Positions 8,459 to 43,253 of a DNA stretch of 56,426 nucleotides are shown in pieces. Under the pieces are notes generated by a model, which had not been told where the DNA came from, made no database searches, and saw nothing but the letters and a program-made list of their open reading frames with translations. Location of the stretch: positions 1-56,426 of IMG/VR virus record IMGVR_UViG_3300025087_000082; one strand, written 5' to 3'. How positions within the stretch are numbered: the first letter of the stretch is position 1; every line of letters begins with the position of its first letter. Position numbers and translations under genes: made by a program. The stretch is from a virus.

Positions 8459-9467
8459 GATAATCCAGGCTAAGGATTTGCGTGGGAAAAGAACTGACCG
8501 TCTTATAGACGTTGTGCCATTATCAACACCCTGGACGCTCTTTTTGGAGCCGACAAATTTATGCCAATATCGCTGCCGATATTGTCCTACGGGTGACACT
8601 GACCTACTCCGCAAGATAGGCAGAAAGAACACGCTGATGGATTGGGGTTTATGGGTCAAAGTCGTGGATGATCTGCGGGCGTTCCCTAATCGCATCCGGC
8701 AGTGCAATGTTTACAAAGATGGTGAGAGTTTGCTTCATCCCCGTTTCTGTGAGATGGTGCGATACCTTCGCGACGCTGATACAGTTGAACGCATCTGGTT
8801 GAAAACTAATGGATCAAAACTCTCCCCCTCCTACAACGCCCGCCTCGTTACCTGCGGCCTGGACATGATTGGCGTATCAGTCCAACACGTCCACGCGCAA
8901 GGCTTCTACGACATCGCCCGCGTGCGGATCGATTATGAGGAGTATCGTGCCAACGTGCTTGATCTGTACCAGCGGAGCCGGGATACCGGCGTACAGATTA
9001 GCACGAAGATAGCTGATGTTGGATTTAGCGACGCCGACAAGCAGAAATTCATAGACGACTTTAGTGATCGCTGCGACTTCATCGCAATAGAAGGTTTACA
9101 CGGCTGGTCTACGTCTGATTTGAAAGACTGGCGGCTGGGTACGGATAACAGCTTCGATGGCTCGCCGCGAACGCACAAGATTGCCTGCCCGTTGACGATG
9201 TACATGCTCACGGTAAACAGCAATGGCGATATATCCGTGTGTAATGATGACTTTGCCCATTATCACCAGCTTGGAAACGTAAACACAGAATCCCTTATTG
9301 ACATTTGGAACGGGAAACGTTTACGGGATTTTCGCCTGATGCACCTTGAGGGTAAACGAAGCGAGAACCGCGCATGTGGTACGTGTGATTATGTTTTAGC
9401 TTTGCCAGCCGTTGACAATATTGACGAATACCGCGAAGAATTTGCAGAAAGGTTGCGTGTTGTATGA
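8451..9467 (+). CDS. Radical SAM enzyme with C-terminal SPASM/twitch-type Cys cluster
   Basis: CQYRCRYC (CxxxCxxC) near the N-terminus. C-terminal cysteines in CPLTMY...SVCNDD...CGTCDY. GGGAG lies before the ATG at 8451. Confidence 0.85.
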   Translation: MAKIIQAKDLRGKRTDRLIDVVPLSTPWTLFLEPTNLCQYRCRYCPTGDTDLLRKIGRKNTLMDWGLWVKVVDDLRAFPNRIRQCNVYKDGESLLHPRFCEMVRYLRDADTVERIWLKTNGSKLSPSYNARLVTCGLDMIGVSVQHVHAQGFYDIARVRIDYEEYRANVLDLYQRSRDTGVQISTKIADVGFSDADKQKFIDDFSDRCDFIAIEGLHGWSTSDLKDWRLGTDNSFDGSPRTHKIACPLTMYMLTVNSNGDISVCNDDFAHYHQLGNVNTESLIDIWNGKRLRDFRLMHLEGKRSENRACGTCDYVLALPAVDNIDEYREEFAERLRVV

Positions 9468-10492
9468 GGCCTTGCCCCGTCTGTGAACATCTCTCCCGCA
9501 CCGAAGTATTTCGTATGCCCTACCGCATCCCCGACTCTTGGCCTCTGCCGTCTGAGATTATCTGGTACACCTGTGACGCCTGTTCGATGTTTTACGGAGA
9601 TGGTAATTTTGATCAAGCGATGCTCAACGAATACTACACCAAATACTACGGCTACGGCGTCAACAACCCCTCCAATATCGAGCGCCTGAAAATGGACGCG
9701 GTACGGATAGCGGAACTGGAACGCAACCGGGAGGCCGTCATCGTGGACTTCGGCGGAGCGGGCGATGATGGCAAAAGTATCATCGTTGGCATGTTGCAGG
9801 ACAGGGGATATACGAACGCCGTCTGCGTGGGTGCAGGCGATCCCCTGCCCCAGCAATGTGACCTTATCTATGCCTCCCACGTCATCGAGCATGTCTACGA
9901 TTTGCCTAAGACGATGGAACGGATAGACGATGCGCTCGCGCCTGATGGCTTGCTCATCATGGACGGACCAGACGCGACGGGCCTGCTTCAAAAGTGGAAG
10001 ATGCCGATATTGGACTTCAATACCAAGCACCTAAATCATTTCACGTTGCGGGATTATCTCAATTTGGGATACCATCACGGCTTCGAATTGGTTGACCTGC
10101 CTACGCAGGCAGGCGTGCGGAAGTACGAACTTGAGAACGCGCCCGCGTATCAATTGCAATTCAGGCGGCTGGACGTGGCGCGGGAGTCAGCGAAACACAT
10201 CACGGATAACATATCCGCCCGCGTGGATAGGCTCAAAACGCTTGCGGGCTTGCCGCTCAACGTCTGGGGCATGGGAGATATTACATGGCATCTGCTAGCA
10301 CAGGTGGAACTCAATATACTTGACTATATTGATAACGATCCCGCGTACCGCGGGCAGACCTACAACGGCAAGCCGGTACAGGAACGACCTACCAACGCCG
10401 CGCCGATCCTGATAATGGCGCAGGGACAGCGGCAACGGCTGATCGAAAATATCAGGAAGGCGGGTATAGAAAACCCGATCATTGAAACATGA
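9464..10492 (+). CDS. SAM-dependent methyltransferase with N-terminal Zn-ribbon (NDP-hexose C-methyltransferase-like architecture)
   Basis: CPVCEH...CDACSMF zinc ribbon, motif I VDFGGAGDDG, and an extra C-terminal domain. The architecture matches TylC3-type sugar C-methyltransferases. Confidence 0.7.
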   Translation: MRPCPVCEHLSRTEVFRMPYRIPDSWPLPSEIIWYTCDACSMFYGDGNFDQAMLNEYYTKYYGYGVNNPSNIERLKMDAVRIAELERNREAVIVDFGGAGDDGKSIIVGMLQDRGYTNAVCVGAGDPLPQQCDLIYASHVIEHVYDLPKTMERIDDALAPDGLLIMDGPDATGLLQKWKMPILDFNTKHLNHFTLRDYLNLGYHHGFELVDLPTQAGVRKYELENAPAYQLQFRRLDVARESAKHITDNISARVDRLKTLAGLPLNVWGMGDITWHLLAQVELNILDYIDNDPAYRGQTYNGKPVQERPTNAAPILIMAQGQRQRLIENIRKAGIENPIIET

Positions 10493-10998
10493 ACGTATCA
10501 CAAATAATTTGGGAAAGGCTGAAACAAGAAACTGAAGTTGTATTCTACCTTCCTGGCGGCGGCTCCGGGCCGCTGGTGGATGCGCTTGGCGCGTCGGGAT
10601 TGCGCGCCGTGTGCTGCCTACATGAGCAGGGCTGCGGCTACGCGGCGGTCGGGTATGCACAGTATCACGGATTCGGCGTGGCGTTGGTCACGTCGGGTCC
10701 TGGGGTCACTAATATTCTCACGCCTGTACTTGCTGCATGGGTAGACAGTATCGCCCTGTTGGTGATAAGCGGCCAAGTCATGCGGAAGTGGCTAGCGCTT
10801 GATGATATGCGATCACGCGGGACACAGGAGGGGCCGACAATAGAAATGGTGAGGCCGATAGTCAAGATAGCGCATCAGCCGAGCGTGAGTGCGGGAATAT
10901 TAGAAGTACTGGACGGGATGATTGAGATAGCAAAAGAAGGGCGTCCCGGCCCCGTGTGGCTCGACATCCCGCAAGACATACAGGCCGCCGATGTATAA
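10489..10998 (+). CDS. ThDP-dependent enzyme, N-terminal PYR domain (ALS/YerE-like), split gene part 1
   Basis: HEQGCGYAAVGYA...VTSGPGVTN...GPVWLDIPQD is typical of TPP_enzyme_N. It ends 8 nt inside the next ORF. Confidence 0.8.
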   Translation: MNVSQIIWERLKQETEVVFYLPGGGSGPLVDALGASGLRAVCCLHEQGCGYAAVGYAQYHGFGVALVTSGPGVTNILTPVLAAWVDSIALLVISGQVMRKWLALDDMRSRGTQEGPTIEMVRPIVKIAHQPSVSAGILEVLDGMIEIAKEGRPGPVWLDIPQDIQAADV

Positions 10999-12127
10999 GC
11001 CAGTCATCCTCATCGGCAACGGCATCCGCAATAACCCGGCGCTTATAAATCACCTTACTTCTTTACAAGTGCCGTGCATTACAACTTGGATGGCGGCTGA
11101 TCTACTGTCAGAAGATTCCCCCGTCTATTGCGGCAGACCTGGAATCTTCGGCCAGCGCGCATCTTGCATAATTCAGCAAAAAGCCACCCATCTCTATTGC
11201 TTCGGCGCACGGCTGGACGGTGAACAAGTCGCCTATGATTATGACCGCTTCGCGCCGAATGCGGAGATATATATTTATGATATAGACCCCGCAGAGGCAC
11301 AGAAGTTCCCGAAGCGTTACCACGTTACGCAGACCCTTGATTGTAGAGATGACATTGATTTTCTTCCGGCCTTTGAACCGCCTCATCGCGACTGGCTCAA
11401 CTGGTGCAAGGCGCTCTACACCCGCTTCCGGCCTGAACTGGACGGGAGACAGGAGACGGGAGACGGAGGCGGCGATCATTTCGTAGACCCGTTCACGTTC
11501 ACGCGACTCCTGCATGACCACAGCCAGTCGGATGACGTGTTCGCTATCGGCTCATCGGGCAACGCCCCGACTGTGTTCTTCCAGGCGTATAAAGTCCGAG
11601 CGGGGCAGCGTATCTCCAACGTCTGCACAATCGGCGCAATGGGCGCTGATATTCCGATGGCTCTCGGCTCTGCGCTGGCATCCGGGCGGCGCACTATCTG
11701 CGTGACGGGCGACGGCGGCTTTGCGATGAACGCGCAGGAACTGGAGACGATACGCAGGCTGCGCCTGCCGATTATCTTTTTCGTGATGAATAACGGCGGC
11801 TATAACTCCATCCGCGTGGGACAGCTTGCGCGCTTCGGGCGCGTGACGGGTGCCAACCCTGCCACAGGGCTGACGCTCCCCAGCATAGAAGCAATTGCGG
11901 AGGCATATCGCCTCTGTTACATGCCCTTGCATGGGCGGGATTTGCCGAACTTCGCCCGATGCTTCGGGATTGCGCCGATGGTCGTGGAAGTGTTTGTTGA
12001 CCCCGAATGGCAGCAGTTGCCGCGCGTGATGGCAAGTGGTAATCCGATCAGGACAGATGACATGGAGAATATGTATCCATATCTACCTGAGAATGAATTG
12101 AGAGAGATTATGGAGTGGGACGGGTAA
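10991..12127 (+). CDS. ThDP-dependent enzyme, central and PP domains (ALS/YerE-like), split gene part 2
   Basis: Central domain KPVILIGNG...PCITTW. ThDP motif GDGGFAMNAQELETIRRLRLPIIFFVMNNGGY. Confidence 0.85.
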   Translation: MYKPVILIGNGIRNNPALINHLTSLQVPCITTWMAADLLSEDSPVYCGRPGIFGQRASCIIQQKATHLYCFGARLDGEQVAYDYDRFAPNAEIYIYDIDPAEAQKFPKRYHVTQTLDCRDDIDFLPAFEPPHRDWLNWCKALYTRFRPELDGRQETGDGGGDHFVDPFTFTRLLHDHSQSDDVFAIGSSGNAPTVFFQAYKVRAGQRISNVCTIGAMGADIPMALGSALASGRRTICVTGDGGFAMNAQELETIRRLRLPIIFFVMNNGGYNSIRVGQLARFGRVTGANPATGLTLPSIEAIAEAYRLCYMPLHGRDLPNFARCFGIAPMVVEVFVDPEWQQLPRVMASGNPIRTDDMENMYPYLPENELREIMEWDG

Positions 12128-12155
12128 CCGCCACACTTCGGAAAGGTTTGAAAAA

Positions 12156-12377
12156 ATGAAAAAGACTATCTTCCTGATTTTAGTGCTGGTATTATTACTG
12201 ACTGCTTGTGGAGGCAGTAAACATACCTACGAAATGACGCTGACGTCTGGAGAGACAATTACGGTGGAGTACGCTGTCTGTAAACCGGGATACGGTGTTA
12301 TCGAATGTTGGAGTAATGTGATGCAACGCTTTCCAGACGCCTCCTATAGTGCAGTAACATTCAAGAAGATTAAATAA
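12156..12377 (+). CDS. Small lipoprotein
   Basis: Signal peptide with lipobox: MKKTIFLILVLVLLLTAC. Confidence 0.6.
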   Translation: MKKTIFLILVLVLLLTACGGSKHTYEMTLTSGETITVEYAVCKPGYGVIECWSNVMQRFPDASYSAVTFKKIK

Positions 12378-12393
12378 TAAGTATATTCAATTG

Positions 12394-12415
12394 TCGCCTT
12401 GCGCGCTGTCGCTGG
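12394..12415 (+). repeat. 22-bp direct repeat, copy 1 (TCGCCTTGCGCGCTGTCGCTGG)
   Basis: Recurs at 12621..12642 with one mismatch. Each copy lies roughly 13-17 nt after the stop of a small ORF. Confidence 0.85.
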
Positions 12416-12434
12416 AGACAAGAAAGGTTTTGAA

Positions 12435-12608
12435 ATGGCACTAACAATAGTTTTGATTTTGATGATTTTCCTGCCCCTGGTTGTTGGCAGTTACATGCAC
12501 TATACTTTGGGCATTACATCAGGAATGGATATTGCCGCGACGGTTTTACTGTATATCGTGGAAATGGCAGTGTTTTATTCCGTGATGATAAAGCGCCCTC
12601 AAAAGTAA
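12435..12608 (+). CDS. Small two-TM membrane protein
   Basis: MALTIVLILMIFLPLVVGSY... GAAAGG lies before the ATG at 12435. Confidence 0.5.
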   Translation: MALTIVLILMIFLPLVVGSYMHYTLGITSGMDIAATVLLYIVEMAVFYSVMIKRPQK

Positions 12609-12620
12609 CCTGTTGTATTT

Positions 12621-12642
12621 TCGCCTAGCGCGCTGTCGCTGG
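12621..12642 (+). repeat. 22-bp direct repeat, copy 2 (TCGCCTAGCGCGCTGTCGCTGG)
   Basis: See 12394..12415. Confidence 0.85.
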
Positions 12643-12713
12643 TAACAAAACTAATATGTATCAATCTCAGTGTATCGTTGTATACCTGTTACTTGATAAA
12701 GGTAACGGTATAT

Positions 12714-13844
12714 ATGAAAGTCCCTATTTCGGGGCAAGTGACTGGAAAGGAAGAAGCGGATAACGTGATAGAAGTCGCGAACTCGCAGAGTTACGGCGGA
12801 TTCATTTGGACGAACCGCTTCGAGCGCGGCTTCGCTCGATTCATGGGTGCGCGTGAGGCGATCCTGTGTAATAGCGGTTCGAGTGCAAATTTACTGGCAT
12901 TATCTGCTCTAGAGCTTCCGAAAGGCTCGGAGGTCATCACCACGGCGGTGAACTTCCCCACGACGGTCAATTGCATCATTCAGCTTGGCTTAGTGCCGGT
13001 GTTTGTGGACAGTGACCCAAAGACGCTGAACTGCGCGGACGGCTGGGAATATTCTCCCGACAATGTAAAAGCCATTATTATGGCGCATGCGCTTGGAAAC
13101 CCCGTAGACCTGACTTATTTGTCGAGCTATGGAATACCTATCATCGAAGATTGCTGCGACGCGGTAGGGAGCACGATCAACGGGCAGATGGTTGGTCGTC
13201 GCGGCATAATGTCTACCGTCTCATTTTACCCGGCGCATCACATCACCACCGGCGAAGGTGGCATGGTACTGACTGATAGCCCGCGGCTGAGGAAGATTAT
13301 CGAGAGTTACCGGGATTGGGGGCGGGACTGCTTCTGTGAGCCAGGAAAGGATAATACCTGCGGGAAACGATTTGACTATGAAATAGATCATAAATATATG
13401 TACTCGCGTATCGGGTGGAATCTCAAGGCAAGCGATTTCCAAGCCGCCGTAGGTGTGGCGCAACTGGATAGGCTTGAAGGGTTTATCGAAAAGCGGCGCG
13501 AGAACTGGACATATTTGTATAATAACTTGAAGGATTTACCGATTGAGATCGTCCAGGCTTCGCCGGGGAGCAACCCTTCATGGTTCGGCTTTGCTTTTGT
13601 TACAGAACACCGTAACAAATTGGCGCGGTATCTGGATGAGCGTGGAGTCGGGAATAGGCCCGCAATGGGCGGCAATCTGCTGAGACAATCCGCGTATAAG
13701 AACATAGAGCATCGCGTCATTGGTAATTTAGATGGCGCCAATATCATTCATGAAAAAGCGATTTGGGTCGGCGTCTTTCCAGGGATCAATGAGGAAATGA
13801 GAGAGTACCAAGCGGAAACCATTCGGAGTTTTTACAATGGCTAA
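12714..13844 (+). CDS. rfbH: CDP-6-deoxy-D-xylo-4-hexulose-3-dehydrase (E1 / RfbH / DdhC family, PMP- and [2Fe-2S]-dependent)
   Basis: NSGSSANLLAL. SFYPAHHITTGEGG has His in place of the PLP lysine. RDWGRDCFCEPGKDNTCGKRF, DHKYMYSRIGWNLK and PSWFGF are also present. C-X57-C-X1-C-X7-C spacing is intact. Confidence 0.9.
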   Translation: MKVPISGQVTGKEEADNVIEVANSQSYGGFIWTNRFERGFARFMGAREAILCNSGSSANLLALSALELPKGSEVITTAVNFPTTVNCIIQLGLVPVFVDSDPKTLNCADGWEYSPDNVKAIIMAHALGNPVDLTYLSSYGIPIIEDCCDAVGSTINGQMVGRRGIMSTVSFYPAHHITTGEGGMVLTDSPRLRKIIESYRDWGRDCFCEPGKDNTCGKRFDYEIDHKYMYSRIGWNLKASDFQAAVGVAQLDRLEGFIEKRRENWTYLYNNLKDLPIEIVQASPGSNPSWFGFAFVTEHRNKLARYLDERGVGNRPAMGGNLLRQSAYKNIEHRVIGNLDGANIIHEKAIWVGVFPGINEEMREYQAETIRSFYNG

Positions 13845-14085
13845 AACAAACAAGATCACGAAATTTGAGATTCGATCATCTGACGAATTGACAGACCTGA
13901 CATCGTTCGTAAAAGGCATGGAAGTAAAGCCGTACCATCCATCGCTTTTGCGTCGTTTGTTCAATTGGCTTTGGTGGCAATGGTTCAGGCATAAAATCAA
14001 CAGGTCATGGAGGAAAATATCAAGAGGTGCAACGATTGAGATTGAATTTGTAAAACGAATACGTGAGCCGTGGAGATGGAACTGA
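13837..14085 (+). CDS. Hypothetical basic Trp-rich protein
   Basis: 82-aa ORF that overlaps both neighbours. Confidence 0.4.
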   Translation: MAKTNKITKFEIRSSDELTDLTSFVKGMEVKPYHPSLLRRLFNWLWWQWFRHKINRSWRKISRGATIEIEFVKRIREPWRWN

Positions 14086-14087
14086 TA

Positions 14088-14765
14088 ATGGATAAAGTTT
14101 TAGTCGTAGGCGGTACAGGCTTCTGTGGCTTTTGGATGCGGCAAACCGCCCCGCCTGATTTACGTATCAGTTACATCGGCAAAAGCGACTACGAACTCCG
14201 GCACTGGAAATGGATGACCTGGGATTACATCGTGCATCTGGCGAATATCTCGCCGTATGAGGTTCTGGAATATGCACAGCCATTCGGTATCCGCGTGCTG
14301 TATGCTTCGAGCGGTATTGTCTATCACGATGAGAATGATACCGAGTACAGGCAGAATAAACTCGATTGGGAAAAAGAGTGCCTGGATAGCGGCGTCGATG
14401 TGGTCGTTTGTCGGTTGTTTGCATTTCATGGGGAAAGGCTATCAGCAGATCACGCGATAGTAGCATTTGAAAATGCGGCAAGAAAAGGCGAGCCACTGAG
14501 AATATTTGGGGATGGAAATACTATTAGAACATATATGAGCGGCGAAGATATGGCGCGGCGAATGTGGGCTGTGTTACTGCATGGCGAGCGCGGCGAATGC
14601 TACGACATCGGAGGCATTACGCCGATCACGATGCTTGAATTGGCAAAAAAGATTATCAAGGATAATAACTCAAAGTCAGAAATAGTTGTCGAGAATGGCA
14701 AAGACCCAATGCCTTGTTACGTGCCAGTAGATGCAGAAAAAACAGAGAGATTGCTAGATAAGTAA
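14088..14765 (+). CDS. NAD(P)-dependent epimerase/reductase (extended SDR, short form)
   Basis: Rossmann motif VLVVGGTGFCG and a later Y-x3-K-like region. The track ORF begins at 14070. Confidence 0.6.
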   Translation: MDKVLVVGGTGFCGFWMRQTAPPDLRISYIGKSDYELRHWKWMTWDYIVHLANISPYEVLEYAQPFGIRVLYASSGIVYHDENDTEYRQNKLDWEKECLDSGVDVVVCRLFAFHGERLSADHAIVAFENAARKGEPLRIFGDGNTIRTYMSGEDMARRMWAVLLHGERGECYDIGGITPITMLELAKKIIKDNNSKSEIVVENGKDPMPCYVPVDAEKTERLLDK

Positions 14766-18770: not shown

Positions 18771-19515
18771 GCACATATTCCACTGGGTTCCCTCATCTGG
18801 CGCGCCGCCTCCGTGGTCGTGCGTCCACTCGTGGGTAAACCTGCTGTTGCCCGAGGGCGCAAAGCGGACATTTAGACAGAGCGGCGCGGGATCGGTTCGC
18901 GTCATCTGGAACGATATTGTGCGGGAGTTTCTCGCAACCGACGCCGAATGGATGTTCAGCACTCACCACGATGTTGTATTTGTCCCTGAAACACTTACGC
19001 GCCTTTTGTCCTGGGATAAGCCTCTCATATCGGCGCTAGTGTTCATGAGACATAACCCGGTCGTCCCGCAGATTTGGAAGTCCTACGACGGCGATGAGGG
19101 CCATTATGTGATGCGGATCAATGATACGCGTGATTGGTTCTACGACCACAAAGAGTGGATCAAGTTCGGGCCGTTCCTAATAGACCCCTGCCCGGACGAT
19201 GCGCTTGTCTCTGTCGGCTTCACCGCAACCGCCTGCACGCTAATACACCGGACTGTGCTTGAGGACATCCGCGCAAAAGTTCCCGACCAGGGAGACGGCC
19301 TGTGGTTCGCCTGCGACAACGAGACTTCGGGCGGCGGGGAAGATCGTCGCTTCTACGAGTACGCGCGGCAAGCCGGGTATGAAGCGTTTGTAGACCGCTC
19401 CTGTATAGCAGGTCATGTAGCTGGCGATATTCCCACATCCAGCGCAGATTTTATCGCCTGGGATAGCGTGAGCGATTTTCATAACACAGGAGAGCCGGAG
19501 GCGGTGGCGGAATGA
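18769..19515 (+). CDS. Glycosyltransferase (GT-A / family 2-like)
   Basis: WMFSTHHDVVFVPETLTRLL, CTLIHRTVLEDI and GGGEDRRFYEYARQAGYEAFVD. TTG start. Confidence 0.65.
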   Translation: MHIFHWVPSSGAPPPWSCVHSWVNLLLPEGAKRTFRQSGAGSVRVIWNDIVREFLATDAEWMFSTHHDVVFVPETLTRLLSWDKPLISALVFMRHNPVVPQIWKSYDGDEGHYVMRINDTRDWFYDHKEWIKFGPFLIDPCPDDALVSVGFTATACTLIHRTVLEDIRAKVPDQGDGLWFACDNETSGGGEDRRFYEYARQAGYEAFVDRSCIAGHVAGDIPTSSADFIAWDSVSDFHNTGEPEAVAE

Positions 19516-20138
19516 CGATTGACTTACGACTGGGCGACTGCCTTGAGATATTGCCAACGCTGGCTGATAAGAGCGTGGATGCTGTGATTACTGACCCGCC
19601 GTATGGAATCAACTACATAAACGGCGGGGGGCGCAATCCTAAGAACGGCTGGCGCGATTTCCGTCCCGATGGTGATTGGGATAAGTGGCGACCAACAAGA
19701 GAGCATTTTGACCAGTTGCTGAGAATTGGAAAGGTTGTAATTATTTGGGGCGGTAATTACTTTTCGGATTGTTTGCCGCCGTCGCAACAGTGGCTGATGT
19801 GGGATAAGGGGCAGCGGGATTTTAGTCTTGCGGATGGCGAGCTCGCTTGGAGCAGCCAAGATAAGGCGGTGAGGATTTTTACTTATTCCAGAGCCGCCAT
19901 GATGAAAGAGAATGGCTTACATCCAACACAGAAACCGATTTCGCTTATGAAGTGGTGTATTGAGATTGCGAAGGCCAAAACTATCCTTGACCCGTTTATG
20001 GGGTCTGGTAGCACGGGCGTAGCTGCGGCGCAATTAGGTTGTGATTTTACAGGCATTGAGATTTCGCCTAAGTATTTCGCTATTGCAGAGAAGCGCATTG
20101 CAGAGGCACAACAGCAGATGATTATGGAGCTTGCATGA
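19512..20138 (+). CDS. DNA N6-adenine/N4-cytosine methyltransferase (beta class)
   Basis: VITDPPYG near the N-terminus. ILDPFMGSGSTGVAAAQLG near the C-terminus. Confidence 0.9.
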   Translation: MTIDLRLGDCLEILPTLADKSVDAVITDPPYGINYINGGGRNPKNGWRDFRPDGDWDKWRPTREHFDQLLRIGKVVIIWGGNYFSDCLPPSQQWLMWDKGQRDFSLADGELAWSSQDKAVRIFTYSRAAMMKENGLHPTQKPISLMKWCIEIAKAKTILDPFMGSGSTGVAAAQLGCDFTGIEISPKYFAIAEKRIAEAQQQMIMELA

Positions 20139-31995: not shown

Positions 31996-32475
31996 ATGGC
32001 AGGCAGAAGATACATAGATGATGATACAGGCACAGGCGCGTCAGCAGGCGAAAAGACAACGCTGACAGGAGCGGAGTTCATTCCTATTTCCGGGAATTAT
32101 GTCGCTGCGGTTTCCACTGTCTTGAAATATACGCTTCAGAAATTGTCCACTACCACCGGCGTTGACATGAAAACGGCGGGGGCTACAACCCTTTATACCG
32201 TCCCTGCTGGAAAGACAGCCTATATTATGGTGGTTGTGATTCGGGATAACTCCGCAAGTTTGGCGGGCGGGACAGATTATGATTTTACAGGCTGGCGGCA
32301 AAGCGTGGATTTATCGGGGATGACCACCGCTAACACAACCTATCGAGTTTTGTATGCTACTGATAACACAAGTTACACGGAGGCGGCTGCGGCGTCTACA
32401 TTCCAGATCACAGTATCCACCGGCGCGACGGCTGCGGGTACAGCGACGATTGATGTATTTGGGTTCCTGGTGTAA
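31996..32475 (+). CDS. Hypothetical tail protein
   Basis: 159-aa ORF, the last plus-strand structural gene. Confidence 0.45.
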   Translation: MAGRRYIDDDTGTGASAGEKTTLTGAEFIPISGNYVAAVSTVLKYTLQKLSTTTGVDMKTAGATTLYTVPAGKTAYIMVVVIRDNSASLAGGTDYDFTGWRQSVDLSGMTTANTTYRVLYATDNTSYTEAAAASTFQITVSTGATAAGTATIDVFGFLV

Positions 32476-32696: not shown

Positions 32697-32838
32697 TCCT
32701 AACGGCTGGCGTGAACTACTATATTAACTTGTCGTAGCTTACCGAATGCGTGTTTTTTGATGACGGGGGGCCAATTTCTTCAACACCCGTAGTTGGGCGT
32801 TGTTCAAGTGCGCGGATCGCCTGCATGCCTTGTTGGGC
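32697..32838 (-). repeat. attC-like site 1 (last, degenerate)
   Basis: Minus strand: R'' GCCCAAC (32838..32832), then AAGGCATGCAGGCG ..., then L' CACGCCAGCC and R' GTTAGGA (32703..32697). Arm pairing is weaker than at the other sites. Confidence 0.55.
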
Positions 32839-32961
32839 TGCCTCTAACTCCTGCAACCTTATTTGCAGGCGGGATATCTCGATACTTAACGCCTTCAAGC
32901 AATCGGCATCGTTTCTATGACTCATTATAATAAGACAACCACAACTCAAACAAATTTTCAT
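32719..32961 (-). CDS. Cassette I ORF 2 (80 aa)
   Basis: GGGAG lies before the ATG at 32961, 2 nt after the upstream stop. Confidence 0.55.
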   Translation of the reverse strand: MKICLSCGCLIIMSHRNDADCLKALSIEISRLQIRLQELEAAQQGMQAIRALEQRPTTGVEEIGPPSSKNTHSVSYDKLI

Positions 32962-32963
32962 GT

Positions 32964-33152
32964 CTACGACACTCCCATGTATGGCGAACTATTTTTCGCA
33001 ATTGCCTTTGTATTCTTTGATTTGCAGTATATACAAGGTTTCTTGTTGCGTGGGTAATTCAAACACCACGCACGACCACGACCACAACCAAAGCAATACA
33101 TATTAGGCTTTTTACGCAAATCCTTTCCGAGCAACATAGAAATTAGAGACAT
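32964..33152 (-). CDS. Cassette I ORF 1 (62 aa, zinc-ribbon-like)
   Basis: AAGGAG lies before the ATG at 33152. CFGCG...CIYC. Confidence 0.55.
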   Translation of the reverse strand: MSLISMLLGKDLRKKPNMYCFGCGRGRAWCLNYPRNKKPCIYCKSKNTKAIAKNSSPYMGVS

Positions 33153-33175
33153 ACAACTCCTTGTACCGCGAAGCG

Positions 33176-33298
33176 GGCTAACGGCTGGCGTTACTGGCGG
33201 GCGTATTGATGCTCAACACATTCGCCAGATTCAACATCGCTTTCGCGCAACACTATTCCGCACTCACGGCAAAGCCTGTCCAGTGCACGCTGTTGGTG
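33176..33298 (-). repeat. attC-like site 2
   Basis: R'' CACCAAC-AGCGTGCACTGG ... CCAG-TAACGCCAGCC-R' GTTAGCC. The ORF stop is the TAA inside the L' box. Confidence 0.7.
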
Positions 33299-33412
33299 GT
33301 GGGCATACCAATCATCACCAAATATGCGTAAATCTTCAATCCATTTCGCTTTATTGACAGCTTGTTCTTTTGTGCCATATTTTTCGATATAACAATCAAT
33401 TAGTAATTTCAT
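33191..33412 (-). CDS. Cassette H ORF (73 aa)
   Basis: AGGAGAAAGG lies before the ATG at 33412. MKLLIDCYIEKYGTKEQAVNKAKW... Confidence 0.55.
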   Translation of the reverse strand: MKLLIDCYIEKYGTKEQAVNKAKWIEDLRIFGDDWYAHHQQRALDRLCRECGIVLRESDVESGECVEHQYARQ

Positions 33413-33438
33413 AATATTGCCTTTCTCCTGGGCAGTCC

Positions 33439-33567
33439 GCCCAACGGCTGGCGTTACCCGCTGGTGGTGGGGATAGGAACACAAGCATGGGTTACATTCT
33501 TCCCGCTTGGGAAACCACAATCCGGGCAGGCGTGCCCACCACCAGTCGGGTGCACGCTGTGTTGGGC
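33439..33567 (-). repeat. attC-like site 3
   Basis: Plus strand: TCCGCCCAAC-GGCTGGCGTTA-CCCG-CTGGTGGTGGG pairs with CCCACCACCAG-T-CGGG-TGCACGCTGT-GTTGGGCGGA. There is a 10-bp R stem, an unpaired spacer, a 15-bp L stem and one unpaired T. Confidence 0.85.
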
Positions 33568-33876
33568 GGACAACCATAAACAATCTTTACTGTGGATAAC
33601 TTCACCTTCTTTGTCTTTTTCGTATTCTTTACAAAAGAAACAGTACAAACCGCCTTGAAATTCATACATTGGATCAAGCTGTGTTAGGATGCCCCTAAGC
33701 CTTCGGATTTCGGCGATTAGAAAAGGGACATCGTTTTGGATAACCTCTTTGCCATACTCGGATGCGTAGAGGAAACCACCATCGAAATGACACCCGCGAG
33801 TTGCGCGCCAATGTATCATTTCAAGTTCATCTTCTGTGAGTTCTTTATACTTCTGCACAGGTTTACTTTTTGGCAT
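33454..33876 (-). CDS. Cassette G ORF 2 (140 aa)
   Basis: ORF from the track. Its 3' end is encoded by attC 3. Confidence 0.6.
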   Translation of the reverse strand: MPKSKPVQKYKELTEDELEMIHWRATRGCHFDGGFLYASEYGKEVIQNDVPFLIAEIRRLRGILTQLDPMYEFQGGLYCFFCKEYEKDKEGEVIHSKDCLWLSAQHSVHPTGGGHACPDCGFPSGKNVTHACVPIPTTSG

Positions 33877-34018
33877 TTTTTTCCTTTCTCATTTTTGCGG
33901 CAATCTCTTTACACTTGGCAACGCCAGCACGGACGGCACGAAGATCAACGCGAACCATCATTTGATGATAGTGCAACTCTTGCCGAAGTTCTTTGATAAT
34001 GGTTTTACTTGTTTTCAT
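33863..34018 (-). CDS. Cassette G ORF 1 (51 aa, basic helical)
   Basis: Translated by hand as MKTSKTIIKELRQELHYHQMMVRVDLRAVRAGVAKCKEIAAKMRKEKNAKK. It overlaps the next start. Below the 60-aa cutoff of the ORF track. Confidence 0.4.
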   Translation of the reverse strand: MKTSKTIIKELRQELHYHQMMVRVDLRAVRAGVAKCKEIAAKMRKEKNAKK

Positions 34019-34043
34019 GGAGTACTTTTTTGTGCACGAGGCA

Positions 34044-34165
34044 GCCTAACTTTTGCGTTAGCGGCGGCGGATTGTGCCACGCATTACCGAATGCAGTTCA
34101 CCTTTTTCGGAAATACCAACATTTTCGCGCACGTCATCAGCCGTCCGCTGCACGCTTTGTTGGGC
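34044..34165 (-). repeat. attC-like site 4
   Basis: Minus strand: GCCCAAC-AAAGC-GTGCAGCGG-A-CGGC ... GCCGCCGC-TAACGCAAAA-GTTAGGC. L stem GCGGCGGC/GCCG-T-CCGC with an unpaired base. Confidence 0.85.
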
Positions 34166-34354
34166 GGCTTCCATGATTATTTGAATGGCAGAGATTGACA
34201 GATTTATACAATGAAAATCTGCAACGCCAATTACAGGACTCATGTGTCTGATAATACTAACTGTGCCATTACTCCTAATTTCGGCATAATGTACGTTATC
34301 AATCTCAACCGTCTTTAGGGTTGTTACTCCAATTGTAGGATCATCGTTTTGCAT
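34058..34354 (-). CDS. Cassette F ORF (98 aa)
   Basis: AGAAAGG lies before the ATG at 34354. Confidence 0.55.
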   Translation of the reverse strand: MQNDDPTIGVTTLKTVEIDNVHYAEIRSNGTVSIIRHMSPVIGVADFHCINLSISAIQIIMEAAQQSVQRTADDVRENVGISEKGELHSVMRGTIRRR

Positions 34355-34378
34355 AATTACCTTTCTGTGGGCGAGTCC

Positions 34379-34489
34379 GCCCAACGGCTTGCGTTAGCCG
34401 CCCTTTACAGGCTGTTTACCTTTGCTGGAGATCACGACTGCGGGCATTTTGCCAATGCTTTCAATAGTCGGCTGCACGCTTTGTTGGGC
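34379..34489 (-). repeat. attC-like site 5
   Basis: GCCCAAC-AAAGC-GTGCAGCCGACT ... CGGC-TAACGCAAGCC-GTTGGGC. Confidence 0.8.
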
Positions 34490-34594
34490 GGCTTCTTGGA
34501 CTGCGGGATGCCAATGATCGCTAACAACATCAACATGCCGCCATTCAGAACCGCTTAGATATATTTCTCGAAAACAAACTTTACACTTTTCCAT
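34394..34594 (-). CDS. Cassette E ORF (66 aa, CxxC...HxxH)
   Basis: GGAAGAAGGAAAC lies before the ATG at 34594. MEKCKVCFREIY... Confidence 0.55.
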   Translation of the reverse strand: MEKCKVCFREIYLSGSEWRHVDVVSDHWHPAVQEAAQQSVQPTIESIGKMPAVVISSKGKQPVKGG

Positions 34595-34618
34595 GTTTCC
34601 TTCTTCCTGGGCGAGTCC

Positions 34619-34730
34619 GCCCAACGGCTCGCTTTAGCGGCTGACCGCTGGCAGAGCCTTTTTGGATTTCGTAACCTTTGCGGGCTTTTCGGCGTGCTCG
34701 TCAATTAGTCCGCTGCACGCTTTGTTAGAC
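34619..34730 (-). repeat. attC-like site 6
   Basis: GTCTAAC-AAAGC-GTGCAGCGG-A-CTAA ... CCGC-TAAAGCGAGCC-GTTGGGC. Confidence 0.8.
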
Positions 34731-34852
34731 GCCCACACGACATATTGTGAAAGCTGCGAGCCGCGCCCGCGCTGGACTCGGAAGCCACAGGCACGGGCAG
34801 CGGCGACGATTTGCTCATAACGATCATCTGTGAAGTAGATGGACTTAGGCAT
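34634..34852 (-). CDS. Cassette D ORF 2 (72 aa, possible ribbon-helix-helix DNA-binding protein)
   Basis: The N-terminus MPKSIYFTDDRYEQIVAAARACGF has the beta-strand-then-helix pattern of CopG/Arc-type proteins. The basic tail is encoded through attC 6. Confidence 0.5.
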   Translation of the reverse strand: MPKSIYFTDDRYEQIVAAARACGFRVQRGRGSQLSQYVVWASNKACSGLIDEHAEKPAKVTKSKKALPAVSR

Positions 34853-34879
34853 TATTTAGGTTTCTGAGGGACAACGCCA

Positions 34880-35113
34880 TTATCTGTTTGCTTTCCAGTG
34901 ATTGATCGGCGCAATTTCCTTCATAGCCTTTTCAAATTCTTCCAGTGTTTTGAAGGTATCGTGACCGATCTCTCCTGTTTCGTCTTGACCGAAGTATGTC
35001 AGGCGATAACCACCCATCAATTCTTCGGTGGCGACTGTGGAAGAACTATCTTCCATTTCAAAAACTAAGCCGCCGTTGTATTCTCGCAGTTGATATTGTT
35101 TCTTGTCGTTCAT
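34880..35113 (-). CDS. Cassette D ORF 1 (77 aa, acidic)
   Basis: GGAG lies before the ATG at 35113. Confidence 0.6.
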   Translation of the reverse strand: MNDKKQYQLREYNGGLVFEMEDSSSTVATEELMGGYRLTYFGQDETGEIGHDTFKTLEEFEKAMKEIAPINHWKANR

Positions 35114-35130
35114 TTCGATCTCCTTTTTGT

Positions 35131-35142
35131 AATCTATAGATT
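35131..35142. promoter_or_regulatory. Perfect 12-bp palindrome AATCTATAGATT (operator-like), copy 1
   Basis: Lies between the -10 and the RBS of the 34880..35113 gene. Confidence 0.6.
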
Positions 35143-35143
35143 T

Positions 35144-35171
35144 ATTTTACTACTAATCTATAGATTGTCAA
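35144..35171 (-). promoter_or_regulatory. Cassette-internal sigma70-type promoter
   Basis: Minus strand: TTGACA (35171..35166), 16 nt spacer, TAAAAT (35149..35144). It overlaps two operator-like palindromes. Confidence 0.55.
35155..35166. promoter_or_regulatory. Perfect 12-bp palindrome AATCTATAGATT (operator-like), copy 2
   Basis: Abuts the -35 hexamer. Centres of the two copies are 24 bp apart. Confidence 0.6.
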
Positions 35172-35196
35172 GGGTGAGTTTTTACGCTTTCTGGGC

Positions 35197-35323
35197 GTCT
35201 AACGGCTGGTTTTAGCTGCGGGGCGGTTCCTGGGTGACATTACTCCAATCAAAATCACCCATGCTGCCATCGTCCATTTTGCGCCAACCCGTAGCCCCGT
35301 CAGACTGCAAACCTTTGTTAGGC
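35197..35323 (-). repeat. attC-like site 7
   Basis: GCCTAAC-AAAGG-TTTGCAGTCTG-A-CGGGGC ... GCCCCGCAGC-TAAAACCAGCC-GTTAGAC. The cassette ORF stops at the TAA inside R''. Confidence 0.8.
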
Positions 35324-35443
35324 GGCTATTTCACCTTGCAGAAAACCTATAACCTGCTCGGCTGTTGTAAAACCATACTTCCATGAGTTGCCATCCTCTT
35401 TTACGAAAATCAATTCAATGACAAAAAGGTTATCTAAATTCAT
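35318..35443 (-). CDS. Cassette C ORF (41 aa)
   Basis: GAAAGGAAG lies before the ATG at 35443. MNLDNLFVIELIFVKEDGNSWKYGFTTAEQVIGFLQGEIAA. The stop lies in R'' of attC 7. Confidence 0.45.
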   Translation of the reverse strand: MNLDNLFVIELIFVKEDGNSWKYGFTTAEQVIGFLQGEIAA

Positions 35444-35466
35444 AACTTCCTTTCGGCGGAGCGTCC

Positions 35467-35592
35467 GCCCAACGGCTCGCTTTAGCGGCGGCGTATTACG
35501 CCTCATGCTCCCGCTTGATAATCGCTTCCATTTCGCCACGCTTCACAGCCTCGGCAGACCGTTCAGCCGTCCGCTGCAAGCGTTTGTTAGCC
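35467..35592 (-). repeat. attC-like site 8
   Basis: GGCTAAC-AAACG-CTTGCAGCGG-A-CGGC ... GCCGCCGC-TAAAGCGAGCC-GTTGGGC. Confidence 0.85.
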
Positions 35593-35777
35593 CGCCCCCG
35601 TGCATTACAGAGCGCCCATTGTGCCTGAGCCAAAGACGGCGCAAGATCATCGCAGTTGAAGCCATCAACTTCGAATAAGCCCCACGCATCATCCATTTCC
35701 AAAATTTCAGGATGTGACGGAATTAGCGCAAGGATTCTATCTGCCAATTCATTACCAGTTGATTCATAATTCAACAT
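35496..35777 (-). CDS. Cassette B ORF (93 aa)
   Basis: AGAAAGGAA lies before the ATG at 35777. The ORF ends inside attC 8. Confidence 0.6.
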   Translation of the reverse strand: MLNYESTGNELADRILALIPSHPEILEMDDAWGLFEVDGFNCDDLAPSLAQAQWALCNARGRANKRLQRTAERSAEAVKRGEMEAIIKREHEA

Positions 35778-35805
35778 TTCAAATTCCTTTCTTTTGCCCG
35801 TAGCG

Positions 35806-35934
35806 GGCTAACGGCTTGCGTTAGCGGTTTGCCGAGCCGTGAACGGGACAATTAGGATCAATACTCAACGTCGTTGGAGTCGGTCGCGTGGAGCAGGTGC
35901 ATACCGGCAAATCCGCTGCACGCATTTGTTGGGC
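35806..35934 (-). repeat. attC-like site 9 (first complete site)
   Basis: GCCCAAC-AAATG-CGTGCAGCGG-A-TTTGCCGG ... CGGCAAACCGC-TAACGCAAGCC-GTTAGCC. Confidence 0.85.
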
Positions 35935-36048
35935 GGCTTTACAATCCAGGCACGTACATTCGGCGATAACGTAGGTTGTTTGGGATATAAACTTTGCACC
36001 GCACAACGCCATTGACCCATCACCACCGTTTGAAATTAGATGAACCAT
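35821..36048 (-). CDS. Cassette A ORF (75 aa, Cys-rich)
   Basis: AGAAAGGTG lies before the ATG at 36048. MVHLISNGGDGSMALCGAKF...CTCLDC... The 3' end runs through attC 9. Confidence 0.55.
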   Translation of the reverse strand: MVHLISNGGDGSMALCGAKFISQTTYVIAECTCLDCKAAQQMRAADLPVCTCSTRPTPTTLSIDPNCPVHGSANR

Positions 36049-36073
36049 AAGACACCTTTCTGCGGAACAAGTC

Positions 36074-36080
36074 CGCCCAA
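36074..36080 (-). repeat. Orphan R' box (GTTGGGC) at the head of the array (attI-like junction?)
   Basis: GTTGGGCGGAC is identical to the internal R' boxes, but the upstream flank (ggaataactccgtagataccata) lacks the L' consensus and no R'' partner lies upstream. Confidence 0.55.
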
Positions 36081-36097
36081 CTATGGTATCTACGGAG

Positions 36098-36271
36098 TTA
36101 TTCCGTATAACATCCCGCATGGGGATGTTTTTCCGGCTCCTCATCCAGCGCGTCATGATCATATGTACACTCCCAGCCCACGAGCGTCAGTTCCATCTCG
36201 TGATCGCAGATGCGGCAGACAGGATCGCCGTCCGGGGGTTCTGAGGGGGGGTCGAAGGTGAGGCGGGTCAT
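36098..36271 (-). CDS. Small Cys-containing protein (57 aa), third gene of the pre-array operon
   Basis: Hand translation: MTRLTFDPPSEPPDGDPVCRICDHEMELTLVGWECTYDHDALDEEPEKHPHAGCYTE. ATGA overlap with the upstream stop. Confidence 0.5.
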   Translation of the reverse strand: MTRLTFDPPSEPPDGDPVCRICDHEMELTLVGWECTYDHDALDEEPEKHPHAGCYTE

Positions 36272-36765: not shown

Positions 36766-36794
36766 ATTATAAAGCAGGAATATGAATTTGTCAA
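36766..36794 (-). promoter_or_regulatory. Consensus sigma70 promoter driving the leftward operon and cassette array
   Basis: Minus strand: TTGACA (36794..36789), 17 nt spacer, TATAAT (36771..36766). Confidence 0.75.
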
Positions 36795-36804
36795 GCCTTA
36801 TGAC
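36790..36804. promoter_or_regulatory. 15-bp inverted repeat, left arm (GTCAAGCCTTATGAC)
   Basis: Perfect reverse complement of 36852..36866. It overlaps the leftward -35. Confidence 0.85.
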
Positions 36805-36851: not shown

Positions 36852-36866
36852 GTCATAAGGCTTGAC
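36852..36866. promoter_or_regulatory. 15-bp inverted repeat, right arm (GTCATAAGGCTTGAC)
   Basis: Overlaps the rightward -35. Confidence 0.85.
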
Positions 36867-36890
36867 ACGGCAGAGTTTATCGGTTATGCT
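36862..36890 (+). promoter_or_regulatory. Sigma70 promoter for the rightward operon (near-leaderless HTH gene)
   Basis: TTGACA, 17 nt spacer, TATGCT. The ATG at 36897 lies only 6 nt after the -10. Confidence 0.7.
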
Positions 36891-42585: not shown

Positions 42586-42801
42586 ATGCCCGCAATGTAT
42601 GAATGTGCAAACCATGATTATTGTGGGGGTTATGTGATCGGCATCAGTAAGACGCATCTGTGCGACAAGTGCCGCGAGACGGCGCGCCAGCTTGATCGCA
42701 AGATCGAGCAGGATGCGCTAATCGAGCAGGAATACAAGCGCCTGAACGCCAAGCATCCGAACCGTCCGACGTTCAAGGAGATCGAGCGGGAGGTCAAATG
42801 A
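42586..42801 (+). CDS. Hypothetical Cys-containing protein (71 aa)
   Basis: GGAGG lies before the ATG at 42586. Confidence 0.5.
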   Translation: MPAMYECANHDYCGGYVIGISKTHLCDKCRETARQLDRKIEQDALIEQEYKRLNAKHPNRPTFKEIEREVK

Positions 42802-43253
42802 AACGTAAAAGTCCTGTGGGCAGCAACTATCCCGATAACTGGCCTGAGATAGCGAAGGCGGTAAAAGACGCCGCGAATTGGCGTTGTGTGCGTTGCGGAA
42901 AGCTGCATGATCCTGAGAATGGGTACACTCTGACGGTACATCATCTGGACATCAACCCTGAAAACTGCGCTTGGTGGAATATCCCGGCACTTTGCCAGCG
43001 TTGCCATTTGTCGATACAAAGCAAGGTCGTGATGGAACAGCCATATATGTTTCCTCATTCAGAATGGTTCAGACCCTATGTCGCAGCTTACTACGCGGTA
43101 GTCGAGGGTGAATTGCAACCGACATTCGATTATTACGAAAGCCTGAAACTTGCGCCGCGCGAAATAGTGATGGAACATATTGACGAGTACCTTGCATTAG
43201 GGCAGGCAATGACACTAATCCCAGGTACAGACCATTTTGAGGAGGCGTGGTGA
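42798..43253 (+). CDS. HNH endonuclease-domain protein
   Basis: CVRCG...LTVHHLDINPENC...LCQRCH. Confidence 0.75.
   Translation: MKRKSPVGSNYPDNWPEIAKAVKDAANWRCVRCGKLHDPENGYTLTVHHLDINPENCAWWNIPALCQRCHLSIQSKVVMEQPYMFPHSEWFRPYVAAYYAVVEGELQPTFDYYESLKLAPREIVMEHIDEYLALGQAMTLIPGTDHFEEAW

Follow-up and report, generated by a model that had tools for sequence, protein, structure and literature searches.

An array of integron-type attC cassettes without an integrase in the early operon of a siphovirus-like phage

Integrons are commonly regarded as systems of bacteria, and according to recent reports, genes for defence against phages are stored in chromosomal integrons. The attC sites (59-base elements) of the Vibrio VCR and class 1 systems are organized as 1L/2L...2R/1R with RYYYAAC and GTTRRRY cores, carry an extra base in the '' arm, and recombine by a crossover between G and TT (G|TT). 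Cassettes of these systems are promoterless and are read from an upstream promoter. Here, an array of nine attC-like repeats is described from the IMG/VR virus record IMGVR_UViG_3300025087_000082, which was analysed over its full length of 56,426 nucleotides (the window). The window is the complete genome of a siphovirus-like phage, and the array sits in its leftward early operon. The repeats very probably form an integrase-less attC cassette array with sites of the type found in Anaerolineae, the cassettes of which would be moved by the integron integrase (IntI) of the host.

The closest described systems are clusters of attC sites lacking an integron integrase (CALINs) in phages, which are rare and were first published in 2023. 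A survey of 10,705 phage genomes from NCBI identified three integrons, one In0, and 17 CALINs (Qi et al. 2023, Front Microbiol, PMC9892861). The CALINs each have at least two predicted attCs, with three in the virulent phage TJE1, and five of six phage attCs recombined with attI1 under IntI1 (PMC9892861). An initial annotation of the present locus, made from the DNA sequence, knew of no attC array described in the early operon of a virulent-looking tailed phage; in view of the survey, which includes virulent phages, this claim of novelty does not stand. The array is an unusually large instance of the published kind and not a new kind. It shares with the published CALINs the attC cassettes in one orientation in a tailed phage without intI, orphan DNA methyltransferases in the cargo (here in relatives of the phage), and the proposed exchange of cassettes between phage and bacterium by the IntI of the host. 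It differs in having nine attCs, with 14 in a relative, in the Chloroflexota type of its sites, in the hypervariability of the locus among close relatives, in the occurrence of the site type in roughly 90 or more uncultivated viral contigs, and in the translation of about half of the phage attCs over their full length. The published sites come from cultured phages and some were assayed, whereas those described here are known from their sequences. No paper was found that describes translated attCs or Chloroflexota phages with attC arrays. The new aspects are the Chloroflexota attC type, the size of the array, the roughly 90 or more IMG/VR contigs, and the mostly translated phage attCs.

Integrons have been noted in Chloroflexi (Cury et al. 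2016, PMC4889954). The chromosomal integrons of Anaerolineae (Chloroflexota) have R''/L'' and L'/R' arms identical to those of the phage array, attCs of the same length class (about 110–135 nt), the same unpaired features, and the same footprint in the pairing of R boxes. They differ in that IntI and attI are present, the attC centres are similar to each other (modal length 129–130 nt), and 71% of the open reading frames (ORFs) end ahead of the attC. By their descriptions, VCR and class 1 attCs have the same organization, cores, extra '' base, and G|TT crossover as the phage sites, and the lack of cassette promoters and the reading from a promoter upstream are likewise shared; however, the phage sites belong to another sequence family, have no linked integrase, are located in a phage early operon, and include one cassette with its own promoter-like site. 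Promoter-early stem-loop (PeSL) cassettes of T4-type phages are modules of a promoter and a terminator that recombine by homology. They are described as repeated stem-loops between small early genes in a hyperplastic region with modular shuffling, as is the case here, but the phage array consists of integron attC sites with footprints of site-specific recombination. From the phage side, the window and its many uncultivated relatives present large, fast-turning integrase-less arrays of the attC type of the host phylum, the window as a complete genome. Phages of an under-studied phylum would thereby draw on the cassette pool of their hosts and feed it, and the attC type offers a new means of linking such phages to hosts. 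The scale, the hypervariability, and the coding attCs are of interest to integron and phage specialists.

The repeats and their kinship with Anaerolineae integrons

The repeats occupy the minus strand from position 35934 to 32697, and one or two small ORFs precede each of them. The repeats are spaced 240–605 bp from each other within 3.4 kb and have one orientation. The nine elements are listed below with their terminal boxes and their scores against a covariance model (CM) of bacterial attCs.

35806–35934, minus strand: attC 1, 129 nt, GCCCAAC...GTTAGCC; CM 54.2 bits, E 7.7e-14; folds as R/L stems
35467–35592, minus strand: attC 2, 126 nt, GGCTAAC...GTTGGGC; CM 40.5 bits, E 7.1e-10; R'' is the exact complement of the R' of attC 1
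35197–35323, minus strand: attC 3, 127 nt, GCCTAAC...GTTAGAC; CM 46.6 bits, E 1.2e-11; folds
34619–34730, minus strand: attC 4, 112 nt, GTCTAAC...GTTGGGC; CM 50.8 bits, E 7.7e-13; R'' is the exact complement of the R' of attC 3
34379–34489, minus strand: attC 5, 111 nt, GCCCAAC...GTTGGGC; CM 64.7 bits, E 7.2e-17
34044–34165, minus strand: attC 6, 122 nt, GCCCAAC...GTTAGGC; CM 59.4 bits
33439–33567, minus strand: attC 7, 129 nt, GCCCAAC...GTTGGGC; CM 76.6 bits, E 2.7e-20
33176–33298, minus strand: attC 8, 123 nt, CACCAAC...GTTAGCC; CM 32.2 bits, E 1.8e-7
32697–32838, minus strand: attC 9, degenerate and last of the array, 142 nt, GCCCAAC...GTTAGGA; CM 16.1 bits, E 0.008; does not fold alone

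An element begins with GCCCAAC-AAA-GCGTGCAGCGGAC, or a variant of it, and ends with CCGCTAACGC-AAGCC-GTTGGGC, or a variant. The R'' box is GCCCAAC in five copies and GGCTAAC, GCCTAAC, GTCTAAC, and CACCAAC in the others; the R' box is GTTGGGC in four copies, GTTAGCC in two, GTTAGAC and GTTAGGC in one each, and the degenerate GTTAGGA in the last copy. The cores AAC and GTT are present in all nine sites, the full RYYYAAC in seven R'' boxes, and the full GTTRRRY in six R' boxes. The boxes that deviate from the consensus (GGCTAAC, CACCAAC, GTTAGCC twice, and GTTAGGA) differ from it at one or two outer positions. With up to three mismatches allowed, the left-arm pattern has five matches in the window, against 0.01 expected. 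The centres are unrelated between copies, which are 111–142 nt long, compared to about 57–141 bp for integron attCs, and the arms covary, with compensatory changes among the window copies (CAGCGG/CCGCT, CAGCCG/CGGCT, CACCCG/CGGGT, and CACTGG/CCAGT).

The plus strands, which correspond to attC bottom strands, were folded singly with DNA parameters. Five of the nine copies form a 7-bp outer stem, separated by an internal loop from a long inner stem that has one 2-versus-1 loop and one bulged T. The consensus structure starts with an R stem of 7 bp and a 3x5 internal loop; a 4-bp and a 5-bp helix follow, separated by a 2x1 loop, and after a bulge comes an extended stem. The unpaired features of the '' arm are the 2-versus-1 loop, in which GC is opposite A/T, and a bulged A in GAC, which is a T on the plus (bottom) strand. 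This structure is found in the bacterial and phage attC sets alike. The initial annotation had reported nine minus-strand repeats of 111–142 bp after one or two small ORFs, and this description and all nine of its R'' boxes are confirmed. Its R' boxes GTTGGGC, GTTAGGC, GTTAGAC, and GTTAGCC are likewise correct, but the degenerate GTTAGGA of the last copy was omitted. The proposed fold into an R stem, a spacer, and an L stem is borne out by the five copies that fold alone and otherwise by the consensus, and the T described as consistently unpaired on the plus strand appears as the bulge in both.

Selfish repeats of the miniature inverted-repeat transposable element (MITE) or repetitive extragenic palindrome (REP) type were rejected as an identity of the elements, given the unique centre of each copy and the fixed position after ORFs. 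Simple terminators were rejected in view of the lack of T tracts. Each R' box is followed, at about 20 nt, by a short GC hairpin (e.g. 34620–34605, 34380–34365, and 35468–35452) that incorporates its RRRY half (GGGCGGAC..GCCC) and directly precedes the Shine-Dalgarno sequence. A hairpin of -8 kcal/mol or lower is present in six of the nine window cassettes. At -5 kcal/mol or lower, such hairpins follow 34% of all viral attCs and 17% of the bacterial ones, which is a modest enrichment.

A search of GTDB, with one genome per species, for the 21-mer of the left arm identified at least 120 genome contigs. Among the matches listed, 82 are titled Chloroflexota/Anaerolineae. Most of these are Anaerolineales, and one is the isolate Anaerolinea thermolimosa IMO-1. 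Many of the matches are arrays of 129–131 nt elements. An IntI1 homolog was detected in six fetched bacterial loci (tblastn, with an IntI1 query), and three full-length IntI proteins, from the loci L088, L099, and L117, score 463–479 bits on the NCBIfam model TIGR02249 'integron integrase' (cutoff 265). In L088, intI is located on one strand, next to an intergenic ATAG|TTGGGC junction and cassettes on the opposite strand, each of which ends with GCCCAACAAAGCGTGCAC...GGTAACGCAAACCGTTAGGC. The layout of L099 and L117 is the same, with a divergent IntI gene, an attI-like G|TT junction, and cassettes with these attCs. Because the same arms flank cassettes beside TIGR02249-positive IntI, the repeats are identified as attC sites of Anaerolineae integrons. 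Anaerolineae are the likely host class of the phage, since its attC type is that of their chromosomal integrons.

The training set of the covariance model consisted of 82 bacterial attCs and excluded the window and all viral sequences; the RNAalifold consensus of these attCs has 22 pairs, 12 of which contain compensatory changes. Run with filters off on the whole window, the model has exactly nine full-length matches, all on the minus strand, with E values from 2.7e-20 to 8e-3, and none elsewhere. All nine elements of the initial annotation, and nothing else in the window, are thus matched by an attC model made from bacterial sites. Because a window-derived pattern was used in the training of the model, the independent evidence that the repeat family is attC is its position beside IntI. 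In a set of 101 attCs from the window and IMG/VR contigs, 91.4% of the cells are paired and 17 of the 22 pairs show double changes. The covariation score of this viral set is 0.42, compared with 0.04–0.09 when the partners are slid. The attC interpretation put forward in the initial annotation is thus upheld by the IntI-linked family and the covariation, which is strong and of the Watson-Crick-only kind, together with the R-box rule, the G|TT boundaries, and the variable content described below.

The left-arm pattern was found in 21 IMG/VR contigs and the right-arm pattern in 78 stretches, against about 1–2 expected by chance from our own estimate of the collection size. Roughly 90 or more IMG/VR contigs carry this attC type. 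Since they resemble the window little outside the arrays, several phage lineages are involved. Six of the contigs with this attC type (L206, L213, L216, L222, L227, and L237) also encode an integron-integrase homolog, with 45–59% identity to IntI1 or to the IntI of L088, which is full-length in five and cut by the end of the locus in L237. The genes next to these IntI homologs are plasmid-like or typical of mobile genetic elements: an actin-like partition protein, methylases, and FtsK. These six contigs could be phage-plasmids, other mobile elements, or bacterial fragments.

Footprints of site-specific recombination and turnover of cassettes

In an array, the R'' box of a cassette pairs with the R' box before it, because the 5' end of the circular cassette becomes that R' box. 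Where consecutive attCs in viral arrays differ in their R' boxes, R'' fits the preceding R' better than its own R' in 36 cases and worse in two, with seven ties (p = 5e-9); the corresponding numbers for bacterial arrays are 25 and 5. Seven pairs could be scored in the window, and cassettes 2, 4, 6, and 8 support the rule; with cassette 1, compared to the lone R' box at the start of the array, there are five. The complementarity of R'' to the preceding R' is perfect in cassettes 1, 2, 4, and 6 and better than to the own R' in cassette 8, cassettes 3 and 9 are tied, and only cassette 7 is contrary. In the 101 viral attCs, AAC/GTT is paired in 98% and the four outer pairs of the R box in 73%. Lower pairing of the outer R box is expected for attC, because each recombination event replaces the final six bases of R'.

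Cassette 7 has a history of its own. Its 5' part (window 34049–33675, 375 bp) is 96.5% identical to the phage contig L172, which is from the same sample as one of the contigs carrying the phage described here. The homology starts at the GTTAGGC box, and the attC centres upstream of it are unrelated. In L172 the cassette is intact and has its own attC, with an R'' box GCCTAAC that is the complement of the 5' end of the cassette. The window retains only ATCCTAACACAGC of this site, after which the reading frame runs into the ORF of the apparent next cassette (ATG at 33669) and attC 7.

33678–33690, minus strand: remnant of a tenth attC, R'' box and spacer ATCCTAACACAGC, inside ORF I; L172 is intact there, with GCCTAACACAGCGTGCAC...

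As read from the comparison with L172, ORF I is the product of a deletion that fused two cassette ORFs and destroyed the tenth attC. The fusion of two cassettes accounts for the deviation of cassette 7 from the pairing rule and for the mosaic protein alignment of ORF I. Since nine attCs in the same orientation are located without IntI on a complete replicon, the region is a CALIN and not a complete integron, and it consists of nine cassettes and the scar of a tenth.

Cassettes shared by different phage arrays break at G|TT, as the initial annotation had proposed for cassette junctions and as the homology with L172 illustrates. The IMG/VR contigs L175 and L230 share a 700-bp cassette at 95% identity, with unrelated neighbours. 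Upstream, the attC centres are unrelated, and the shared sequence sets in with the generic L' arm and GTTAGGC; it ends right after the GTT of the R' box of the cassette, which is GTTAGGC in one contig and GTTGGGC in the other. Ends of isolated blocks of high identity are located at most 25 nt from a crossover site in both partners in 10 of 54 cases, compared to 2.7% under the null.

Related phages were identified by their tail protein, which has 94% amino acid identity in L142/L146 and 87% in L145. These genomes are collinear with the window, and the flanks of the array are 80–95% identical in nucleotide sequence on both sides. At the same locus, L142 has 14 attCs and L145 has seven; none of the cassettes of L142 and L145 is common to the window, except for the inner part of one attC. 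The variation in gene content between related phages, a comparison that the initial annotation had pointed to, is thus complete at this one locus. The window, L142, and L145 share a conserved anchor of about 20 nt that ends with TAG|TT, and their divergence starts after G|TT.

36075–36097, minus strand: 5' junction of the array, anchor CTCCGTAGATACCATAG followed by the lone R' box G|TTGGGC, with which cassette 1 begins

The lone R' box (36081–36075) is a perfect complement of the R'' of attC 1. The host attI junctions are ATAG|TT in two of three cases (L088 and L117). The cargo of the relatives includes a Dam methylase cassette in L142, and cassettes for a C5-methylase and an FtsK-gamma protein in L172. 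Because orphan DNA methyltransferases are among the cassettes of relatives, at least part of the cargo is probably used for anti-restriction or host takeover. DnaB as a probe for related viral loci yielded no confirmed relatives, and a scan of a single metagenome provided only contigs of 1–7 kb, none of which was useful for the array.

The attC architecture, the link of the repeat family to IntI, the insertion footprint at G|TT, and the complete turnover of content between related phages are read from the aligned sequences, and mobilization would be carried out by the IntI of the host in trans. During infection, the plus strand, which is the attC bottom strand, would become single-stranded and fold into the R/L hairpin with extrahelical bases. 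The IntI of the host, acting in trans, would cleave it between G and TT, and would excise cassettes or insert them at the TAG|TT anchor or at other attCs. The outcome would be a hypervariable set of small early genes.

Several points weigh against the interpretation of the locus as an active array served by the IntI of the host. The evidence for cassette activity in the phage consists of comparative footprints. The tblastn search (IntI1 query, E ≤ 1e-3) found no IntI in the 56-kb replicon. The training sites of the covariance model were picked by a pattern from the window's own arms, and its matches indicate membership of a family and not independent attC character. About one-third of the genome matches listed for the 21-mer are in bins with other labels, and the assignment of the host is based on the attC type. 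The 19 further public loci of this phage lineage are 99.3–100% identical over the parts of the array that they cover, with no cassette polymorphism among them, so that no single-cassette insertion or deletion was seen. These loci are from ENA and JGI metagenome assemblies, most of them of groundwater, and were fetched by exact copies of two flanking proteins. Furthermore, the inner parts of attC 6 and attC 7, including the peptide tails that they encode, are shared with sites that have different R boxes and spacers, and the shared segments do not end at G|TT. The inner part of attC 6, from L'' to L', is 91% identical to the last attC of L142 (14242–14365), where it follows a different ORF, and that of attC 7 is 93% identical to an attC in L170/L171 (L170 1104–1232) behind an unrelated ORF. 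Finally, L145 and L008 share ORF bodies without their attC.

The near-identity of the 19 loci and the lack of IntI in the genome, together with the degenerate last attC and the attC destroyed by deletion, are what would be expected if a piece of a host integron had been captured once by illegitimate or homologous recombination and were now inert, with repeats that no longer recombine. However, three related lineages have wholly different cassette sets behind one conserved TAG|TT anchor, individual cassettes recur, bounded by G|TT, in more than one phage array, and the site type is present in the roughly 90 or more IMG/VR contigs. Moreover, the phage attCs differ systematically from the bacterial ones in their unique, translated centres. 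A single capture followed by inertness is therefore quite improbable.

The shared inner segments of attC 6 and attC 7 and the L145/L008 ORF shared without its attC would also result if the arms, about 22 bp long, served as short patches of homology, used by a recombinase of the phage or the host or in template switching, and the likeness to attC reflected only ancestry. By contrast, the rule that R'' fits the preceding R' requires crossovers in the 7-bp core at G|TT and not anywhere in the arms, and the cassette of L175 and L230 ends right after GTT. No recombinase gene was recognized in the window, and a scan of about 40 of its larger ORFs for recombinase domains found none. Exchange through the arms as the sole mechanism is unlikely. 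The sharing of inner parts of attC 6 and attC 7, which goes beyond the canonical G|TT exchange, suggests additional exchange within the conserved arms; such exchange probably operates in addition to IntI and not in its place.

Cassette ORFs and read-through of attC

The proposed mobilization of cassettes by IntI would concern twelve small ORFs of 41–140 residues, within 32719–36048 on the minus strand, for which the same gene calls are found on identical public contigs.

36048–35821, minus strand: cassette ORF
35777–35496, minus strand: cassette ORF
35443–35318, minus strand: cassette ORF
35113–34880, minus strand: cassette ORF
34852–34634, minus strand: cassette ORF
34594–34394, minus strand: cassette ORF
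34354–34058, minus strand: cassette ORF
34018–33863, minus strand: cassette ORF
33876–33454, minus strand: cassette ORF
33412–33191, minus strand: cassette ORF
33152–32964, minus strand: cassette ORF
32961–32719, minus strand: cassette ORF

Several of the twelve ORFs contain CxxC motifs. None has a family match in Pfam or PHROGs, and in about 0.9 Mb of fetched arrays only ORF E is matched, by a weak homolog in L036. In six of the nine window sites, the ORF ends at the TAA of L'. The stop at site 9 is a TAG just before the degenerate L', at site 3 a TAA inside R'', and at site 2 it is located in the central part; the seven of nine stops that the initial annotation had placed at the L' TAA are corrected accordingly. 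After the six ORFs that end at the L' TAA, the next start codon follows in about 30–45 nt, with a Shine-Dalgarno sequence in between. The Shine-Dalgarno sequence reported after every R' box is present in eight of the nine cassettes, but not in cassette 7. The conserved arm is read in different frames among cassettes, and therefore its conservation is at the level of DNA, in agreement with the initial annotation.

The relation of ORFs to attCs differs between phages and bacteria. Of the 101 upstream ORFs in viral arrays, 47 end in L', at the TAA of CGCTAACGC, 16 in the centre, and only 13 before the attC. By contrast, 80 of 113 upstream ORFs in bacterial arrays stop before the attC (71%) and eight in L' (7%). 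The share of L' stops is thus 47% in viral and 7% in bacterial arrays. The centres of phage attCs are unique and mostly coding, whereas those of bacterial attCs are alike. The phage-specific read-through of attCs is established statistically, and the following functions are proposed for it. The hairpins of attCs impede the expression of downstream cassettes, which is a known problem of integrons. Ribosomes translating through an attC would keep the hairpin in the mRNA melted, and a stop at the L' TAA, just upstream of the next Shine-Dalgarno sequence, would couple translation along the long operon. Coding attCs would also spare the genome about 1 kb of non-coding sequence. The translation of attCs resembles an answer, specific to phages, to hairpins that hinder the expression of downstream cassettes.

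The fixed position of the stops before the next Shine-Dalgarno sequence, the transcription of the elements within one operon, and the small hairpins after many R' boxes would equally be expected of elements that act only in RNA, as mRNA processing sites, attenuators, or translational couplers without a role in DNA recombination. However, Rfam has no match in the whole window (0 families). G-U pairs account for about 22 of about 100 non-Watson-Crick cells in the L stem of the 101 viral attCs, which is near the share expected without an advantage of wobble. Because wobble pairs are not favoured over other mismatches, it is argued that the hairpin is formed by DNA rather than RNA. The lower pairing of the outer R box than of AAC/GTT, the R-box footprint, and the cassette boundaries are signatures of DNA recombination, and the same sites flank cassettes beside IntI in bacteria. 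An exclusive role in RNA is highly improbable.

Beyond the presence of attC cassettes that would be mobilized by the IntI of the host, it is possible, as a tentative extension, that this lineage of Chloroflexota phages keeps a dedicated integrase-less platform, in which an attI-like TAG|TT anchor behind an early promoter is reloaded by the IntI of the host. The attCs would have been turned into coding sequences that serve as swappable C-terminal modules, several of them with CxxC knuckles, and as translational couplers. If this were true, integron recombination would shuffle the tails of proteins as well as genes in the arsenal of phages for host takeover and anti-defence.

Setting of the array in the phage genome

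The ends of the window have a direct overlap of 115 bp, and therefore the genome is complete and circular, with a length of about 56.3 kb. It encodes a large terminase (TerL), portal, major head protein (MCP), tape measure protein (TMP), Dit, and DnaB helicase, as well as several DNA methylases and homing endonucleases. A tRNA scan of the window found none, and a near-identity search of the array against 50,697 GenBank phages had no match. The features around and inside the array are as follows.

36766–36794, minus strand: consensus early promoter TTGACA-17-TATAAT (12/12), which would drive the leftward operon with the array
36098–36271, minus strand: backbone ORF of 57 residues with CxxC motifs, directly upstream of the array; 73% amino acid identity to L142 18843–19001
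35144–35171, minus strand: promoter-like site TTGACA-16-TAAAAT inside the array, where cassette 4 starts

A perfect inverted repeat of 16 nt, TGTCAAGCCTTATGAC (36789–36804 and 36852–36867), holds the -35 boxes of two divergent promoters and looks like an early regulatory switch of the phage. In the backbone ORF upstream of the array, the contig L153 (2305–2413, compared to window 36215–36257), which is from an otherwise identical strain, has about 150 bp of extra sequence, including a 43-bp duplication. At the start of cassette 4 (35171–35125, minus strand), the 12-mer ATCTATAGATTA occurs twice, once over the spacer between the -35 and -10 boxes and the -10 box, and once just downstream. The pair may be an operator inside a cassette.

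Directly after the last attC (32671–32480, minus strand), a strong promoter-like site, TTGACA-17-TACAAT, precedes the hairpin GGAGAGGCGGCGATCCTCTCC. The approximately 180 nt past the promoter-like site contain no convincing ORF and converge on the tail gene at 31996–32475. The array of L142 is trailed by a similar block at about 13650–13590, as judged by eye. The block may encode a small RNA or an antisense RNA.

Two genes outside the array have homologs near attC sites or in cassettes. An N6_N4 DNA methylase gene (19512–20138, plus strand) in the structural module is an insertion relative to L142 and L145: where the window has about 640 bp, L142 has 189 bp and L145 a few bp. No attC flanks this gene in the window. 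Its homologs are present in L003, L023, and L055, stretches that were fetched by the attC arm motif, and in L003 they are near attC sites. The phage HNH endonuclease gene at 42798–43253 (plus strand) has a homolog that is a cassette in a bona fide Anaerolineales integron (L117 159–371). A GIY-YIG/NUMOD3 homing endonuclease is encoded directly upstream of the large terminase gene (227–946, plus strand). Between the portal and major head genes (7528–14765, plus strand), an unusually placed block encodes enzymes of the sugar or cofactor type, including a short-chain dehydrogenase/reductase (SDR), a radical-SAM-like protein, an aminotransferase, and an epimerase, which may modify DNA or the virion.

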